Positions 12,001 through 21,000 of a stretch of DNA of 64,000 nt are shown piece by piece. Numbering within the stretch: the first letter of the stretch is position 1; the number at the start of each line of letters is the position of its first letter. The stretch is taken from the NCBI GenBank assembly GCA_963815215.1, contig CAWFFU010000003.1, positions 896,001-960,000 on the forward strand, read 5' to 3'. A program made the position numbers. The DNA is from an uncultured Trueperaceae bacterium. GTDB lineage: Bacteria > Deinococcota > Deinococci > Deinococcales > Trueperaceae.

Positions 12001-15000
12001 GACGAGCGCCTCTACCCGCAGCTCGTCGCGGCCGCCAGCCAGCAGCTCATCGCGCAGAGCCTCTCCGAGACCACCGGCGGCTACGCTCAGGTCGGCTGGG
12101 AGATCGATCTCGGGGGCGGCGATCAACTCAACCTGGTGGAGCAGGCGGACGATCCCACCGACATCGCCACCGCCACCGCGCGGCTCATCGGCAGCCCCCT
12201 GCAAGCGCTGGCGACCAACGTGTTCCGGGCGCCGGGCATCGTTGCCGTCAAGATCAACGTCCGCATCTCGAGCCACCGCAGCAGCGGCGAGATCGTCGAT
12301 GTGGTGGCCGAGAACCCCAAGGTCGACCCGGGCACCTCGGTGGTGCTCCATGTGCGGCTGCAGCCCTTCCGCCAGGAACCGCTGGTGAGGACGCTGAGCG
12401 TCAAGTTGCCCGACGGCGTCCGCGGGAAGGTGACGCTCACCGTCCGCGGCGGCGACGTGACGCCCAAGTCCGACGCCGCGCAGACGCCGGCCACGGATCG
12501 GCCGCGCTCCTTCCCAGAGTTGCTCGACGCCCTGCGCCAGAAGCCCCAGGCCAGCGAGTTGGTGGTGGAGGCGCCCGACAAGGACGGCAACGTCCGGCGC
12601 TTGGAGCGGATGGCGCTGCCGTTCGTCGTCACCGGAAGCCGCACCGTCGAGGTCACCGTCAAGGGCGGCGAGGCGCCTCCCGACGGGCAACCAGCCGGCT
12701 CGAGCGGCGGCACGAGCGGTGCGCCGAGCGCGCCCAGCCCGGCCCCGCCGAAGCTCGACCAACCGCCCGCCGGAACGCCGCCGCCCACGCCAGAAGGCCC
12801 CAAGCCCAACGGAGACGGCAACTCCGCGGCGAGCGGCATCGGAGGGGGAACGCCTTGAACGCGCCCACGCACGACAGCGTCACGCTGGCCTCGAGCCTGC
12901 AGGGGAACCATGTGGGTCCCGCCGTGCCGGTCCGGTGGCTCGCCTCACCGGCAGGCGCCGGGCCCGGCGCCGTCGTCGTCGCCCCGGACGCGGCCGCCCT
13001 GGCGATCGCCCTGGCGGGCGCTCCGGCCGTTGTCGTGCTGCCGCACGAGCTTGCGCTCCCCGAGCCGCCCCCCTGCAGCGGCATCCGGGTCGATGACCCG
13101 CGCCTGGCGCTGGCGCAGCTCAGCGCCCTGTTCGACCGGCGACCCGCCGGGCCGGCGGGCGTGCACGCCACGGCGGTGGTCGCGGCCGACGCCTCGCTAG
13201 GCGACGACGTCGCCATCGGCCCGCACAGCGTCGTCGAGGCCGGTGCCTCGATCGCCGCGGGCACGCGCATCGGCCCCAACTGCAGCATCGGCGCCGGCGC
13301 GGTCCTGGGCCGGGACTGCCGCCTTCACGCCGGCGTGGCGCTCTACGACGGCGTTGTTTTGGGCGAGCGCGTCGAGCTTCACAGCGGCTGCGTGGTCGGG
13401 GCGGACGGCTTCGGGTATGCCGCCGGGCCCGGCGGCGCCGCCAAGATCCACCACCTCGGCAGCGTGATCATCGGCGACGACGTCGAGATCGGCGCCAACA
13501 GCTCGGTCGACCGCGGCACGCTGGACCCGACCCGCATCGGGCCGCGCAGCAAGATCGACAACCACTGCCAGCTCGGGCACAACGTGACGATCGGCAGCGA
13601 CTGCCTGATCGCCGCCATGACCGCGATCGCCGGCAGCACCCGTGTCGGGGATCGCACGATCCTCGGTGGCTACGTCGCCGTGACCGATCACGTCGCGATC
13701 GGCGCCGACGTCCGCATCGCGGGCCGAGCCGGGGTCACCAAGGACGTTCCCGACGGGGAGACGTGGGCGGGCTTCCCCGCCCAGCCTTACCGCCGCTGGG
13801 TACGCGGACTGTACTTGCAGGGCCGGCTCGAGCGCATCTGGCAGGCCGTGAAGGGGCACGATGCCCAGCCTTGAGGGCACGGGCGTGCACAGTGGCGCCC
13901 TGTGCCGCGTCACGCTGCACCCCGAGGAGGGCCCGCTGCGCTTCCGGCGGCGCGGTCACGACATCCCCGCCACCCTCGACGCGGTGGTCGACAGTCGCCG
14001 CGCGACCACGCTCGGCCGCGAAGGCGAGCGCGTGGCGGTGGTCGAGCACCTGCTCGCTGCACTGGCCGTGCGGGGCTACTGGTCGGGCCTGGTCATCGAG
14101 GTCTCGGCGACGGAGATGCCCATCCTCGACGGCTCGGCGCGGGCCTGGTACGACCTGCTGAGCGAGCTGCCCCCACCGCCACCGCCCCCCGCCCCGATGC
14201 GCCCACAGCGCAACGTCTCGATCGCGTCGGGGGGCGCGCGCGCCGAGCTCGAGCCGGGGGCTGCGACGCTGTGTTACGGCATCGACTTCGAGCACCCCGC
14301 CATCGGCGAGCAGCACTGGTGCGGCGGCCCCGAGCGCTACCGGGAACTCCTCGACGCCCGCACCTTCGGGCTGCTTTCGGAGGTCGAAGCGCTGCGCGCG
14401 CAAGGTTTCGCTTCCGGCGCCAACCTCGAAAATGCTATCGTCTTTGGTGAGGAGGGCCCGCTGGTACCTTTGCGCGCGGAGAACGAGCCGGTGCGACACA
14501 AGGCCCTCGATGCCCTGGGGGATCTCTACTTGCTCGGACGACCGCTCGAAGCTCGGGTTACCTTCTGGCGAGGCTCGCACGCCTTGCACGCCGCCCTTAT
14601 GAGAGAGCTGCTACGTCCCACCACCCAGGCGGACCCCGCGCGATGAGGGCCTTGCGGGTCGCGGTCGTCGGTGCCGGCGTGATGGGCCGCTTCCACGCCA
14701 ACAACTACGCCGCCCTCCCGCACGTGGAGCTGGTCGCGGTCGCCGACCCCGACCCGGATCGGCGCGCCGAAGCGCGCGCCTCGTTCGCATGCCGGGCCTA
14801 CGGCTCGCTCGACGAGCTATTGACGGCCGAGTCGTTCGACGCCGCCAGCGTGGCGGTACCCACCAGCCTCCACTTCTCGGTGACCAAGCGCCTGCTCGAA
14901 GCGGGCGTCCACGTGCTGGTGGAGAAACCGGTGGCGACCGACGTGGCCCAGGCGCGCGAGCTGGCGACGCTGTCGCGCCGTCTCGGCCTGGTCCTGCAGG

Positions 15001-18000: not shown

Positions 18001-21000
18001 GCCGACCGCACGCTCGCGTTGTGGCGCGACCCGGCCGATCGGGAGCGGCGCAGGCAGCGCCTGCGGGCCACCATGCCGCGGCCCGGCGCGGCGGCGGCGC
18101 TGCTCGACGCCATCGACGCCGACCTCGGCATCACCCGCCGCCACTCCGGGACCGCCGCACCGTGAAGCGCGCGGGTGCGGGCCCTGCGCGGCCGCATGAT
18201 CTGCCCTCGTTGCTGTTGCCGACGAAGCCGCGCGCGATCGTCGGGATGGGCGCCGCCCTCGTCGGATCGGTACTGCGCGTGGCCATCGTCCCCGTGTTCG
18301 TCACTCCCATCTTCGATCAGGTCGTGAATCGGCAGGACCTGTCCCATCTGCCCTCGATCCTGGTGACCGCAGGTGCGGTGGCGCTCACCGGGGCCCTGGC
18401 TCTGTGGGCCCAGGACGCCCTCCTGGGGCGCTCCGCCGCGACCGTCACCCGGACCTGGCGCAGCGGTCTGTACCGCCGCCTGTTGCAGCGACCGCCCGGC
18501 ACCCTGCCCGGCAGCAGCGGCGGCCTCGCGAGCCGGATCCTGACGGACCTGCGAGAGATCGAGACGTACTTCCGCTTCGGAATCGGAACGCTGGTGGCCG
18601 AGTCCGGCACGGTCCTGGCCATCCTGGCCTACCTGTTCGGCACCAACATCGTGGCATCGACGATGCTGGTCGGTTTCGGGCTGCCGACGCTGCTGGCGCT
18701 GCGCTGGATCGGCGGCGCGCTGGAGCACGTGGCGGAGCGCTCGCAGGTGGGCACCGAAGCGCTGGGGCGCCACATCCAGGAAGGGCTCAAGCACCATGAG
18801 ACGGTACGCGCGTTCGATGCCGCGCCGATGATGTTGGAGCGCTTCGAACCGGAGAACCGTCGTACCGCCCGCGCCATGGCTCAACGGAGCCTCATCTCCG
18901 GGGCCCAGATCCCCATCACCCAGGTGCTGCTGTTCGCGGCGGTGGGTCTCCTCGTCGTCCTCCTGGCCGGCAGCGTTGAGCGCGGGGCGATGTCCGCGGG
19001 GCAGCTGGTCTCGTTCGTCACGCTGGTGGCCCTGCTGTCCACGCCGGCGCAGCTCCTCCCCAAGGGCTACGCCCTGTTGCGCGAGGCCCAGGCCGCCGCC
19101 AAGCGGCTCCGCACGCTCGCCGGCTCCGATGCCCCACGCCCGGCGACGGCCGACCGGCCCTGCGCCGGTCCCGCCCGCGGCCACGGGCTCGAGCTCGCTG
19201 AGGTCTCGTTCGCGTACCCCGACGGGCCGTGGGTCCTGACCGGGATCGAGGCGAGCCTTCCCGAGCACGGGCTCGTCGTCATCACCGGCGAGAGCGGGGC
19301 GGGCAAGACCACCCTGCTGCGGCTCCTGCTGGGGTTCCTACAGCCCGTTCGAGGCTGCATCTGGCTCGACGGCGAAGCGCTCGACGCGCTGCCCGAGAGC
19401 GTGCTCCGATCGCGCGTCAGCTACGTCCCGCAGGCGCATGAGGTGCTCTCCGGCCCCCTGCGCCAGAGCCTCCTCATGGGCCGCGTCCTCCCCGACGATC
19501 GGCTATGGCAGGCCTTGGAGGCGGTCGGGCTGGAGGAGATGGTGCGACGCCTGGCTCGCGGCCTCGATCACGAGCTGGCCGAGGACGGGGCAGGTCTGTC
19601 GGGCGGTCAGCGGCAACGGCTGGCCCTGGCCCGGGCTCTCCTCACGCAACCGCGGGTGCTGCTCCTGGACGAGCCCACCTCGAGTCTCGACGAGGCGAGC
19701 GAAGCCGGATTGGTGGAGATGCTGCGGGCACAGGCGCAGCGGCGACTGGTGGTCGCGGTCGCGCATCGCCCAGCCCTCGTACGCGCCGCGGACCACACCT
19801 TCCATCTGAGCGGCGGCGCCCTGGTGCGGCTGCCCGCTCAGGACGCGGAGATGCGCCGCTGAAGCGTCAGCTCGGGCCAGCGCACCAGCCACGCCTCCGG
19901 CATCCGCAGATCGCGCCACAGCTCATAGGCATCGAGGCCGCTCGGACTCGCAACCAGTAGGCTCATGACCTTGCCGTGCGCGACCACGGCGGGGCGCTCG
20001 CCCGGGTTGCGCTCCAGGGCGGTCTGCAGGCCCGCCCTGAAGCGCTCGCGGGCTTCCGTCGCCGTCTCGCTGCCGAACACCAGCACGTCGGGGTAGCGGA
20101 AGAAGCGCCGCACCGTGCCCTGCCATGCCTCCTCGCCGAGCACAGGAAGGTTCCCCCGCTCGTGCTCGTGCAGACGCGGAACCGAAGCGAACGGTAGTTC
20201 CAGGTGACGGGCCAGATCGCGCCCGGTGGCGACGGCCTTGGGTTCGGTGCTGGCCACCACCAGATCGAGATCGAGCGGCGCCAGTCGGTTCGCCAGCGTC
20301 CGGATGGTCTCCCCCGCCCCCTCCACGAGCCGCCACTGGGAGGCGGGGACATCGGCCCGCAGCCGCGAGGGAGCATGGCGAACCAGCACCAGCTCCGTCA
20401 TCCGGCCAGAGCCTCCAACGCAGCGCCGACGGCTCGCCCGAAGGGCGCCTCGCCCCCGAGGGCGCGAACCGCGTCCTCCAGGGCGGCCGCCAGCGTCACC
20501 ACGTCGAACCGGTCGGCGTAGCCGAGCACGCTGGGACGGATCAGGTGGGGCTTGGCGGCGTCCTGCCCGGCACCGATGCGGATGCCGGCCTCCGCCAACT
20601 GCCGGACGACCGCGCTAGCGTCGATGCCTTCCGGCGTTCGCAACGCGGCCACGGCAGGGCTCGGGCGCTCGGCGTAGCGTTCGAAGCCGACCGCCTCGCC
20701 GGCGCACAGGAGCGCCTCGTTCAGCGCTGCGCGGCGTTGCCACACCGCCTCCACGCCCTCGTCGAGCAGCACGTTCAGGGCCGCGTCGAGCCCGGCGATC
20801 AGGCTCACGGCCGGCGTGGTGGCTGTCTGATCCTGCGCCTGCCGCTCGCGCTCGCGCCGCAAATCGAGGTAGTAGCCGGGCACCAGAGCACCCCGCCGCG
20901 CCAGCTCGTCGCTGCGCCGCCAGGCGCGCTCGGAGAGGTACGCGAACGCCAGCCCGGGCGGCACCATGAGCCCCTTCTGCGACCCCGACACCACCACGTC

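Follow-up and report, generated by a model that had tools for sequence, protein, structure and literature searches.

The window analysed here is a 64,000-nucleotide stretch of the forward strand from an uncultured Trueperaceae bacterium (assembly GCA_963815215.1, contig CAWFFU010000003.1, positions 896,001 to 960,000). Open reading frames and family scans identified seven genes on the + strand at window positions 12855-19862: lpxD, lpxC, a gnnA-like oxidoreductase gene, fabZ, lpxA, an LpxB-like glycosyltransferase gene and an ABC exporter gene. This is the string named in the survey's finding, and the PF02684 score of its LpxB-like product was as claimed. The genes, with the two upstream of them, are listed below.

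9941..10969, +, mreB; NF010539 474 bits (the listed ORF runs from 9260, but the MreB domain starts at about residue 229)
10972..12858, +, candidate S55 (SpoIVB)-like serine protease, 628 aa, secreted; weak PF05580 match of 16.2 bits, signal-peptide-like N-terminus in the translation
12855..13874, +, lpxD, UDP-3-O-acylglucosamine N-acyltransferase, 339 aa; NF002060 317.7 bits (cut-off 207), TIGR01853 302 bits (cut-off 242.5)
13861..14646, +, lpxC, UDP-3-O-acyl-GlcNAc deacetylase, 261 aa; PF03331 212.4 bits, model positions 10-267 of 268
14643..15608, +, gnnA-like GFO/IDH/MocA NAD oxidoreductase, 321 aa, candidate UDP-GlcNAc 3-dehydrogenase; PF01408 113 bits
15690..16112, +, fabZ, 3-hydroxyacyl-ACP dehydratase, 140 aa; NF000582 153.6 bits (cut-off 113)
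16109..16915, +, lpxA, acyl-ACP:UDP-GlcNAc(3N) acyltransferase, 268 aa; NF003657 252.1 bits (cut-off 226), PF13720 56.5 bits
16918..18165, +, GT19-related LpxB paralog (P0001), 415 aa; PF02684 23.5 bits (cut-off 22.6)
18162..19862, +, ABC exporter, half-transporter type, 566 aa, candidate flippase (MsbA role); PF00664 97 bits, PF00005 106 bits

Five of the six junctions within the string overlap or are 2 nt apart, and the only larger gap, 81 nt, lies between the gnnA-like gene and fabZ. The GTG start of the exporter overlaps the TGA stop of the paralog. At the other end, the lpxD start overlaps the stop of the protease gene, which has the same orientation and is probably part of one transcription unit with the lpx cluster. 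In several Trueperaceae loci (e.g. L030, L032, L033, L038, L056, L068 and L086), though not in Meiothermus, the protease gene precedes lpxD, while mreB is a conserved upstream neighbour in both Trueperaceae and Meiothermus taiwanensis.

Some of the products fall below curated models. LpxC scored 172.5 bits against TIGR00325, slightly under the cut-off of 187.25. The top named match of the oxidoreductase is the archaeal UDP-GlcNAc 3-dehydrogenase NF040723, at 173.5 bits against a cut-off of 450; since this is the only curated model for that activity, the GlcN3N backbone is putative. The gene does lie between lpxC and fabZ in both Trueperaceae and Meiothermus. The exporter reached 219 bits with the MsbA model TIGR02203 (cut-off 602) and is below every curated MsbA cut-off by a wide margin, which counts against the flippase part of our best explanation. 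An exporter stands downstream of the paralog in 16/19 Deinococcota loci and 20/48 other loci.

The truncation described by the survey was also found. In this genome (97.15% complete, 14 contigs), profile searches gave no match to LpxH or LpxI_C and none to LpxK at E<=10. The best WaaA match was an insignificant 10.5 bits, located inside the LpxB-like gene, and KDO8P synthase reached 109 bits at best (cut-off 314). Among 364 Deinococcota genomes, just one passed the cut-off for LpxK, one passed it for WaaA, and none had canonical LpxB. LpxH and LpxI were each found in none of 128 Trueperaceae genomes. The counts for LpxK, WaaA, LpxH and LpxI support the view that the truncation is not an assembly gap. 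The absences are of detectable homologues, and non-orthologous replacements are possible. E. coli, Caulobacter and Bacteroides controls were positive in the LpxC, LpxK, WaaA and LpxB searches; Synechococcus elongatus was positive for LpxC and LpxB and negative for LpxK and WaaA. LptD was not detected with a model that, among the controls, was positive only in E. coli and Caulobacter. Homologues of LptF/G are present, as are three DegT-family aminotransferases, none linked to the lpx cluster. A Kdo-free, 4'-unphosphorylated product, as the survey proposed, is the natural reading of this gene set.

The distribution of LpxC is wider than the survey's Trueperaceae trait. Its counts of 113/127 in that family (f1; 112/126 without G330, a genome flagged as unpublished and included in the tallies) and 0/125 in f2 were reproduced, and LpxC was also found in f3 (17/19), f5 (33/68), f4 (2/23) and f6 (1/1), giving 5/6 Deinococcota families. 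If f5 corresponds to Thermaceae, its split may track that between Meiothermus and Thermus. Meiothermus taiwanensis has the identical string from mreB through lpxD, lpxC, gnnA, fabZ, lpxA and the paralog to the ABC exporter, and the place of lpxD is kept across Deinococcota loci. The order shared by Trueperaceae and M. taiwanensis persists at 34-47% protein identity, indicating an old unit on which selection acts. The survey suspected that a published supplement might already list the gene set. Supplement file 2 of PMC5007114 does list LpxA, LpxC and LpxD for Truepera radiovictrix, with LpxB as 'NH', but it covers those four genes only.

The main departure from the survey concerns the LpxB-like gene, which had been taken for a very divergent LpxB. 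By sequence comparison, P0001 is not a diverged LpxB ortholog but a member of a distinct family of GT19 paralogs. In blastp, it aligned over its full length with paralogs from Cyanobacteria, Sericytochromatia, a Halanaerobiales-labelled MAG and Meiothermus (E 5e-30 to 7e-70), but only partially with the canonical LpxBs of those same genomes (E 3e-8 to 4e-3). A tree of 20 hand-chosen rows separated the paralogs from canonical LpxB with support of 98/98 and placed Deinococcota as a monophyletic group within the paralogs (100/99). Canonical LpxB was present in 4/4 and 17/17, thus 21/21, of the non-Deinococcota paralog carriers tested, including 2/2 Cyanobacteria (about 325 bits), in which the paralog sits apart from the lpx genes. 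This coexistence implies that the ancestral function of the paralog differs from that of LpxB. The two genes adjoin in the Halanaerobiales-labelled MAG (G004), although such labels may be wrong. Neither the Meiothermus genome (G003) nor a Deinococcales MAG (G471) yielded canonical LpxB. No curated model was found for the family. The nearest, TIGR03492 ('lipid-A-disaccharide synthase-related protein'), is to our knowledge an LpxB-related family of no known function; it drew weak matches from 21/24 diverse paralog members, the best at about 31 bits against a cut-off of 219, and no match from P0001 at E<=0.01.

The AF2 model of P0001 (pLDDT 90.9) has a GT-B fold, as does E. coli LpxB (GT19; PDB 5W8N/5W8S/5W8X; PMC5785501). 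The motifs PGSR, GT..E and LPN and the N-terminal GE are conserved, and P0001 keeps the counterparts of E. coli E15, S200/R201, T277, E281 and N316, which predicts a UDP-type donor site; the cyanobacterial paralog has K and A at the positions of R201 and T277. In contrast, P0001 scored 20.9 bits with the LpxB equivalog model (cut-off 190). The paralogs lack the hydrophobic membrane patch at E. coli positions 62-76 and a large part of the groove motif at 120-130, and some 20 additional residues are inserted behind the first strand downstream of E281. D98, the catalytic base of LpxB, is not conserved. At its likely counterpart, in a region of uncertain alignment, most paralogs have the D of an 'LGGD' motif, P0001 has N, and the other Trueperaceae and Meiothermus have S, N or A. 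Catalysis in Deinococcota may thus differ or be impaired.

WaaA (KdtA), the GT30 Kdo transferase, is likewise an inverting GT-B enzyme; it adds sugar to the 6'-hydroxyl of a lipid A precursor that MsbA then flips. The paralog family was found almost only in bacteria without it. WaaA was detected in 0/5 and 1/18 paralog carriers, and in 1/36 overall; the exception is G476. A 91-genome sample of the class of the Halanaerobiales-labelled MAG had the paralog in 14/24 WaaA-negative genomes (3 of the 14 matches being fragments at contig ends) and in 0/67 WaaA-positive ones. The exclusion of WaaA is a correlation among related genomes rather than a set of independent events.

Our best explanation, to which we give a probability of about 60%, is that the operon makes a Kdo-free, never 4'-phosphorylated lipid-A-like glycolipid that is passed to the ABC flippase. 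Judging by family membership, the GnnA-like dehydrogenase and one of the DegT-family aminotransferases would convert UDP-GlcNAc to UDP-GlcNAc3N. LpxA would acylate position 3 from 3-hydroxyacyl-ACP, with FabZ at the branch point, LpxC would remove the N-acetyl group, and LpxD would add the second acyl chain to give UDP-2,3-diacyl-GlcN(3N). We infer the function of the paralog, and all that follows LpxD, from sequence. The next enzyme would be the paralog rather than LpxB, still binding UDP but with another acceptor domain. Because it coexists with true LpxB elsewhere and almost never with WaaA, we tentatively prefer, at a little under even odds, that it replaces WaaA and attaches the first sugar to the diacyl-glucosamine lipid at its 6-hydroxyl. 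With true LpxB lost in Deinococcota, this acceptor would have a single sugar, making the anchor shorter than the lipid A of cyanobacteria. The exporter would then flip the product, with LptF/G homologues available for onward transport. Against this, if the paralog merely adds a sugar, no known enzyme here releases the lipid from UDP.

The main alternative, which we hold to be distinctly less probable than replacement of WaaA, is that the paralog took over the disaccharide-forming step in Deinococcota. It would then be a doubtful but serious candidate for a fast-evolving functional LpxB in a four-enzyme pathway like that of cyanobacteria, which would yield a tetra-acyl disaccharide from an acceptor supplied by some hydrolase. 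On both readings of the paralog, a further enzyme would have to remove UMP or UDP, as in cyanobacteria. The gene occupies the lpxB place after lpxA in every Deinococcota locus, and the genome has no other GT19-like gene except for an 18-bit match in a GT28/GNAT protein. With the family profile, E. coli LpxB (E 1.8e-21) ranks far above other GT-B enzymes (3e-3), the UDP-binding residues are retained, and loss of true LpxB with LpxA, LpxC and LpxD kept is easiest to understand if a disaccharide is still made. However, the coexistence with true LpxB, side by side in one MAG, speaks against it, as does the missing hydrophobic loop and helix, where mutations abolish LpxB activity. The non-acidic D98 counterpart of Trueperaceae, if correctly aligned, and the lack of both LpxH and LpxI to provide lipid X also count against it.

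It is improbable that no LPS-like outer-leaflet lipid is made and that the paralog moves UDP-diacyl-aminosugar or N-(3-hydroxyacyl)-hexosamine units to another acceptor. One candidate would be the glycolipids with hexosamine that characterize the Thermus-Meiothermus-Deinococcus group. Meiothermus, unlike Thermus, has hydroxy fatty acids on its glycolipid hexosamine, and LpxC in just 33 of the 68 f5 genomes may reflect this difference if f5 is Thermaceae. The undetected LptD and the acceptor domain unlike that of LpxB also favour this idea, and the phylum is described in PMC3111992 as having unusual glycolipids and phosphoglycolipids. Yet LpxA, LpxC and LpxD are at or near curated lipid A cut-offs, the genes are arranged as in lipid A operons, and paralogs occur in phyla with ordinary LPS-type envelopes, within lpx clusters and beside MsbA-like exporters. 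Least probable by far is a full classical Kdo2-lipid A, through non-orthologous replacements of LpxH, LpxB, LpxK and WaaA or genes hidden in assembly gaps. LpxH has been replaced repeatedly in evolution, by LpxI and LpxG (PMC3087551), and the genome is short of 100% complete, but replacements would be needed for five separate functions. KDO8P synthase was not found in this genome, the absences repeat over the 364 genomes (128 for LpxH and LpxI), many >95% complete or closed, and cyanobacteria with an equal gene set have LPS without Kdo and phosphate (PMC3087551).

Compared with known systems, the paralog resembles WaaA in being present where WaaA is absent, and this genome's best WaaA-model match, itself insignificant, falls within it. 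The two share no significant sequence similarity, and WaaA has a CMP-Kdo donor site, in contrast to the predicted UDP-type site of the paralog in a genome without the Kdo synthesis gene. We hypothesize that they may be functionally equivalent. The GnnA/GnnB route to GlcN3N lipid A is known from Acidithiobacillus and Leptospira, both with the full Raetz pathway. Here, likewise, the lpx cluster includes a GFO/IDH/MocA oxidoreductase gene, with one for a DegT-family aminotransferase elsewhere, but the oxidoreductase is under its cut-off, the aminotransferase is unlinked and the full Raetz pathway is absent. The closest precedent is the lpxA/lpxC/lpxD/lpxB-only pathway of Cyanobacteria and Dictyoglomi, tied to LPS without Kdo, heptose and phosphate (Opiyo et al. 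2010; PMC3087551). It likewise has the early lpx genes only, with LpxH, LpxK, WaaA and LpxL undetected, and its order of lpxD-lpxC-fabZ-lpxA-lpxB is identical to the one here, with the paralog in the lpxB position. Since that pathway was published in 2010, the truncated set is not the new minimal lipid A that the survey proposed. The present cluster differs in its additional gnnA-like and ABC exporter genes, and Deinococcota have the paralog alone where the two Cyanobacteria tested have it together with canonical LpxB. What looks new is the LpxB-like gene itself, as a member of an unstudied sister GT19 paralog family.

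The survey's finding had placed a lipid A-type gene string at 12855-19862 of the window. Open reading frames and family scans showed the string as it had been written, with seven genes on the plus strand.

Genes of the lpx string (window positions, strand, identity)
12855-13874, +, lpxD; NF002060 317.7 bits, cut-off 207
13861-14646, +, lpxC; PF03331 212.4 bits
14643-15608, +, GFO/IDH/MocA oxidoreductase (gnnA-like); best named match NF040723, archaeal UDP-GlcNAc 3-dehydrogenase, 173.5 bits, below the cut-off of 450
15690-16112, +, fabZ
16109-16915, +, lpxA; NF003657 252.1 bits, cut-off 226
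16918-18165, +, LpxB-like protein P0001, 415 aa; PF02684 23.5 bits, gathering score 22.6
18162-19862, +, ABC exporter, 566 aa; below every curated cut-off, MsbA model TIGR02203 219.3 bits against 602

Neighboring genes in the string share 4 to 14 nt or are spaced by 2 nt, with the exception of an 81-nt gap 5' of fabZ. The GTG start of the exporter overlaps the TGA stop of the P0001 gene. The gnnA-like oxidoreductase stays below the NF040723 cut-off (173.5 against 450 bits), and the three DegT-family genes of the genome all lie at other sites, not next to it. The exporter passed neither curated MsbA model (TIGR02203, 219.3 bits against 602; NF008381, 137.5 bits against 867), and its ABC exporter architecture and gene context make it a candidate for the MsbA role. 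Among loci with enough downstream sequence, an ABC exporter lies within 1.6 kb 3' of the P0001-type gene in 16/19 Deinococcota loci and in 20/48 other loci.

Upstream of the string and in the same orientation are mreB and a candidate secreted S55-type protease, whose stop overlaps the lpxD start. The protease candidate (10972-12858, plus strand, 628 aa) has a GMSGSP motif of serine-protease type and matches Peptidase_S55 (SpoIVB) weakly. Its gene shows translational coupling to lpxD and is kept 5' of lpxD in several Trueperaceae, not in Meiothermus. Downstream of the string the strand switches. The minus-strand genes that follow in a row (19838-23207) encode a protein of the histidine phosphatase family, a class V aminotransferase and SerA (TIGR01327, 601 bits). 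They resemble an operon for serine biosynthesis in which the phosphatase is a non-classical one. The histidine phosphatase was considered as a lipid A phosphatase and rejected because it belongs to this serine-pathway-like operon and is not kept beside the cluster in other loci. A plus-strand ORF at 20125-21564 was dismissed as spurious, since Arg, Pro and His abound in its translation; the real genes there are on the minus strand.

In the window's own genome, which is 97.15% complete and in 14 contigs, six-frame family searches detected no LpxK at E ≤ 10 and neither LpxH nor the LpxI C-domain. The best WaaA match (10.5 bits) fell inside the LpxB-like gene itself, the best KDO8P synthase (KdsA) match reached 109 bits against a cut-off of 314, and canonical LpxB was absent. 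With no LpxH, LpxI, canonical LpxB, LpxK, WaaA or KdsA over cut-off found, this genome does not show the gene set of the Raetz (Kdo2-lipid A) pathway. Across 364 Deinococcota genomes, LpxK passed its cut-off once, as a fragment in family f4, and WaaA once, in the LpxC-free family f2. Weak LpxK-model matches in the phylum scored about 20 bits in the P-loop region. LpxI and LpxH were each found in 0/128 Trueperaceae genomes. Canonical LpxB was found in 0/364 genomes with PF02684 at E ≤ 1e-12, a search that was positive in 4/4 LPS-bearing controls.

The LpxC counts of the survey were reproduced, with 113/127 in Trueperaceae (f1) and 0/125 in f2. The remaining families gave 17/19 (f3), 2/23 (f4), 33/68 (f5) and 1/1 (f6), and these tallies take in one genome flagged as unpublished (G330). 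Since LpxC is missing in 14/127 Trueperaceae and only 33/68 of f5 are positive, the pathway has been lost more than once within the phylum. Several of the 14 LpxC-free Trueperaceae genomes are closed or >95% complete (for example all 3 of genus g13 and all 4 of g31).

LptD was not detected in the window's own genome with a model to which, among 14 controls, E. coli and Caulobacter alone responded. The genome has three LptF/G homologues. Two of them form an LptF/LptG pair (196.7 and 220.8 bits) on contig C11 (locus L008, 10043-16376, plus strand), immediately followed by a 976-aa and a 460-aa ORF for which no Pfam match was obtained even at E ≤ 1. These two ORFs are possible outer-membrane partners, so far unrecognised, of an Lpt-like machine. 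The third homologue (178 bits), on contig C3 (locus L009, 9967-13270, minus strand), adjoins a 707-aa protein that is matched weakly by LptD_N/OstA (14.6 bits, E 0.039). Although no LptD was obtained with PF04453, the 707-aa protein may be a divergent LptD- or LptA-like one.

The survey had read P0001 as a very divergent LpxB-like glycosyltransferase. Of the curated models, PF02684 barely recognised it (23.5 against 22.6 bits, over one 39-residue stretch only) and TIGR00215 gave 20.9 bits against 190.25. Among 8000 candidates scored, 487 close relatives were found at E ≤ 1e-3, the best 120 of them all at least 59% identical, and a whole-library profile search returned 1098 cluster representatives at E ≤ 1e-3. 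The P0001 sequence alone matched nothing meaningful in the PDB (best E 0.56) and the close-relative profile reached LpxB at no better than E 0.022. The link became clear only with a diverse profile, A2, built from the window protein and 23 representatives out of 150 listed. This profile matched E. coli LpxB at E 1.8e-21, with the next GT-B enzymes at 3e-3. All 24 members of A2 were touched by PF02684 and none approached the TIGR00215 or TIGR03492 cut-offs. The AF2 model of P0001 (pLDDT 90.9, pTM 0.88) has a GT-B fold with its two Rossmann-like domains. Foldseek did not discriminate further, as it returned generic GT-B enzymes: at least 500 PDB matches at E ≤ 1e-3, with UDP-GlcNAc 2-epimerases first (E 4e-12) and LpxB at rank 8 (E 1e-9).

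Loci of this family were collected with a 10-row alignment. Going by the record titles' own taxon labels, they come from Cyanobacteria, Sericytochromatia, Margulisbacteria or Saganbacteria, Halanaerobiales and other Firmicutes, Armatimonadetes, Aerophobetes, Desantisbacteria, Omnitrophota, Trueperaceae, Deinococcales and Meiothermus. By blastp, P0001 aligned with members of this family over the full length (E 5e-30 to 7e-70) and with canonical LpxBs from the same genomes partially (E 3e-8 to 4e-3). In a maximum-likelihood tree of 20 rows chosen by hand, the two groups were split with a support of 98/98. Inside the P0001 clade, the Deinococcota grouped together (100/99), as did Cyanobacteria with Sericytochromatia (89/87). 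Another protein of the window's own genome, on contig C12 (locus L003, 868-2559, minus strand), is 563 aa long and matches LpxB weakly (17-18 bits); its domains are a GT28 C-domain and a GNAT domain. It adjoins a DegT-family aminotransferase (C12:8864-9949), and the two genes are probably a separate sugar-modification cluster.

The genomes behind the collected loci were then searched with PF02684. Canonical LpxB accompanies the P0001-type protein in 21/21 non-Deinococcota carriers, encoded elsewhere in the genome in Laspinema (327 bits) and Microcystis (325 bits); a Sericytochromatia MAG also has one (270 bits). In a Halanaerobiales-labelled MAG, canonical LpxB (320 bits) lies immediately 5' of the P0001-type gene, within the order LpxC-FabZ-LpxA-LpxI-LpxB-paralog-(GT2)-ABC-third LpxB-like. 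Among 18 further carriers, all but a Deinococcales MAG have canonical LpxB, one of the 17 as a contig-end fragment. In Meiothermus and in the window's genome, the P0001-type protein was found without it. By the tree, the blastp comparison and this coexistence, P0001 is no ortholog of characterised LpxBs and belongs to a paralog family. The cluster of the Halanaerobiales-labelled MAG (L036, 3893-13145) holds three GT19-like genes, the third of which (24.7 bits) follows the ABC exporter and has a very long branch in the tree. LpxI is present in that genome, and WaaA and LpxK were not found at E ≤ 1e-3.

The first five carriers examined had neither WaaA nor LpxK, and WaaA was found in 1/18 further carriers. 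In a 91-genome sample of the class of the Halanaerobiales-labelled MAG, 67 genomes have WaaA and 14 have the paralog (3 of the 14 being contig-end fragments), and no genome has both. The paralog is thus found in 14/24 WaaA-negative genomes compared to 0/67 WaaA-positive ones. With each genome counted once, 1/36 carriers outside the phylum surveys has WaaA; as the carrier genomes are related, this exclusion is a pattern and not a statistical test. The distribution of the paralog points to a role in Kdo-free LPS assembly.

The paralogs were compared with E. coli LpxB by MAFFT alignment, using the residue list in Table 3 of PMC5785501. E. coli E15, S200/R201, T277, E281 and N316 are kept, and the P0001 equivalents are E14, S181/R182, T278, E282 and N341. 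P0001 therefore has the counterparts of E15 and of the UDP-binding and leaving-group residues, and their conservation suggests that the paralogs keep an intact UDP-sugar donor site. In three cyanobacterial paralogs (L076, L084, L089), K and A take the places of R201 and T277 (PGSK, VGANT). The cyanobacterial genes sit away from lpx genes, and the Microcystis one neighbors a gene for an NTP-transferase that carries a hexapeptide domain. Every paralog is some 10 residues shorter in the segment of the hydrophobic loop and helix at E. coli 62-76, and the membrane-association patch (V66, V68, L69, L72, L75, L76) is lost. The hydrophobic patch at 62-76 is described in PMC5785501 as essential for E. 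coli LpxB activity. The paralogs are also without most of the E. coli 120-130 motif and have about 20 extra residues behind the strand that follows E281. MAFFT pairs the predicted base D98 with a serine three residues upstream, where the alignment is unreliable. By strand position, the likely D98 equivalent, again in an uncertain alignment, is the residue after 'LGG'. Most paralogs have D at this site, P0001 has N98, and the other Trueperaceae and Meiothermus have S, N or A.

Judging by family membership, the early steps of the pathway would lead to UDP-2,3-diacyl-GlcN(3N). The conserved in-cluster oxidoreductase and the three unlinked DegT-family aminotransferases make the GlcN3N part a candidate step. 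Our preferred reading, to which we give a probability of about 45%, is that the paralog acts in WaaA's place, as a UDP-sugar transferase whose target is the 6-hydroxyl of the lipid precursor. The near exclusion of WaaA and the kept donor-site residues are consistent with it. The main alternative is that the paralog took over the LpxB reaction in Deinococcota, where it is found without canonical LpxB. The carriers outside the phylum have both proteins, and the hydrophobic patch is gone from the Deinococcota paralogs as from all others; we consider this takeover rather unlikely. If the paralog instead replaces WaaA, Deinococcota without LpxB would then carry a monosaccharide anchor. Going by gene context, the adjacent ABC protein would export the product of the pathway. 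Extended to its full breadth, the proposal is doubtful. The paralog would be the missing enzyme that defines Kdo-free LPS in Cyanobacteria, Dictyoglomi, several candidate phyla, a diderm Firmicutes branch and Deinococcota, adding a UDP-derived sugar to the lipid A precursor 6-hydroxyl in place of the Kdo transferase, and in Deinococcota, which have lost true LpxB, one diacyl-GlcN3N unit would be the base of the outer-leaflet lipid, as a monosaccharide 'half lipid A'. To our knowledge, such a 'half lipid A' is known from no bacterium.

According to two envelope reviews (e.g. a passage in PMC13721041), there is still no LPS in the Deinococcus-Thermus outer membrane. Antunes et al. 2016 (PMC5007114) inferred that the phylum's ancestor had an outer membrane with LPS, and the ancestral lpx genes are used there in arguments on diderm/monoderm envelope evolution. 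Supplementary file 2 of that study covers just LpxA, LpxB, LpxC and LpxD. For Truepera radiovictrix and Marinithermus it gives LpxA, LpxC and LpxD, and 'NH' in place of LpxB; for Meiothermus ruber it gives an 'LpxB' adjoining LpxA. The Truepera 'NH' and the Meiothermus match arose because LpxB was scored there with the Pfam model. Retention of LpxA, LpxC and LpxD without true LpxB, LpxK and WaaA changes what 'LPS present' means in such reconstructions. Our literature search, which left most subscription journals outside, found no dedicated paper on lipid A or lpx in Truepera or Meiothermus and, for LpxB paralog names, just Leptospira 'lpxB2' mentions. This unstudied paralog, found in Kdo-free lineages and nearly exclusive with WaaA, is a testable candidate for the Kdo-free assembly of cyanobacterial-type LPS, a question standing since 2009-2010.

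The string is also not confined to Trueperaceae. By tblastn of the window proteins (80 loci), the order MreB-(protease)-LpxD-LpxC-GnnA-FabZ-LpxA-LpxB-like-ABC was found in many Trueperaceae MAGs. Meiothermus taiwanensis DSM 14542 has this order too, minus the protease (34-47% identity, MreB 70%), and LpxC occurs in f3-f6. Two Trueperaceae MAGs have insertions: a Stf0-type sulfotransferase (206 bits) between gnnA and fabZ (L044:4829-5563), and an HNH endonuclease with a DMFA2_C-domain protein between lpxA and the paralog (L043:5863-7939). No hydrolase or kinase was found in these cluster gaps. The operon is real and conserved across most of the phylum, and it is of a known kind, a Kdo-free shortened lipid A pathway that is partly in print.

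The proposal of a new minimal lipid A does not hold, since the cyanobacterial pathway of Opiyo et al. (PMC3087551) has the same gene order. Cyanobacterial LPS is described there as free of Kdo, heptose and phosphate. In agreement with that account, our control genome, Synechococcus elongatus, gave matches for LpxC and LpxB and none for LpxK and WaaA. Compared to the cyanobacterial pathway, the window adds an inserted gnnA-like gene and an appended exporter. Deinococcota do not match the four-enzyme set of Cyanobacteria and Dictyoglomus: they share LpxA, LpxC and LpxD and the absence of the later enzymes, but canonical LpxB is missing in 364/364 genomes. The new element is a phylum that is without true LpxB and relies on the paralog.
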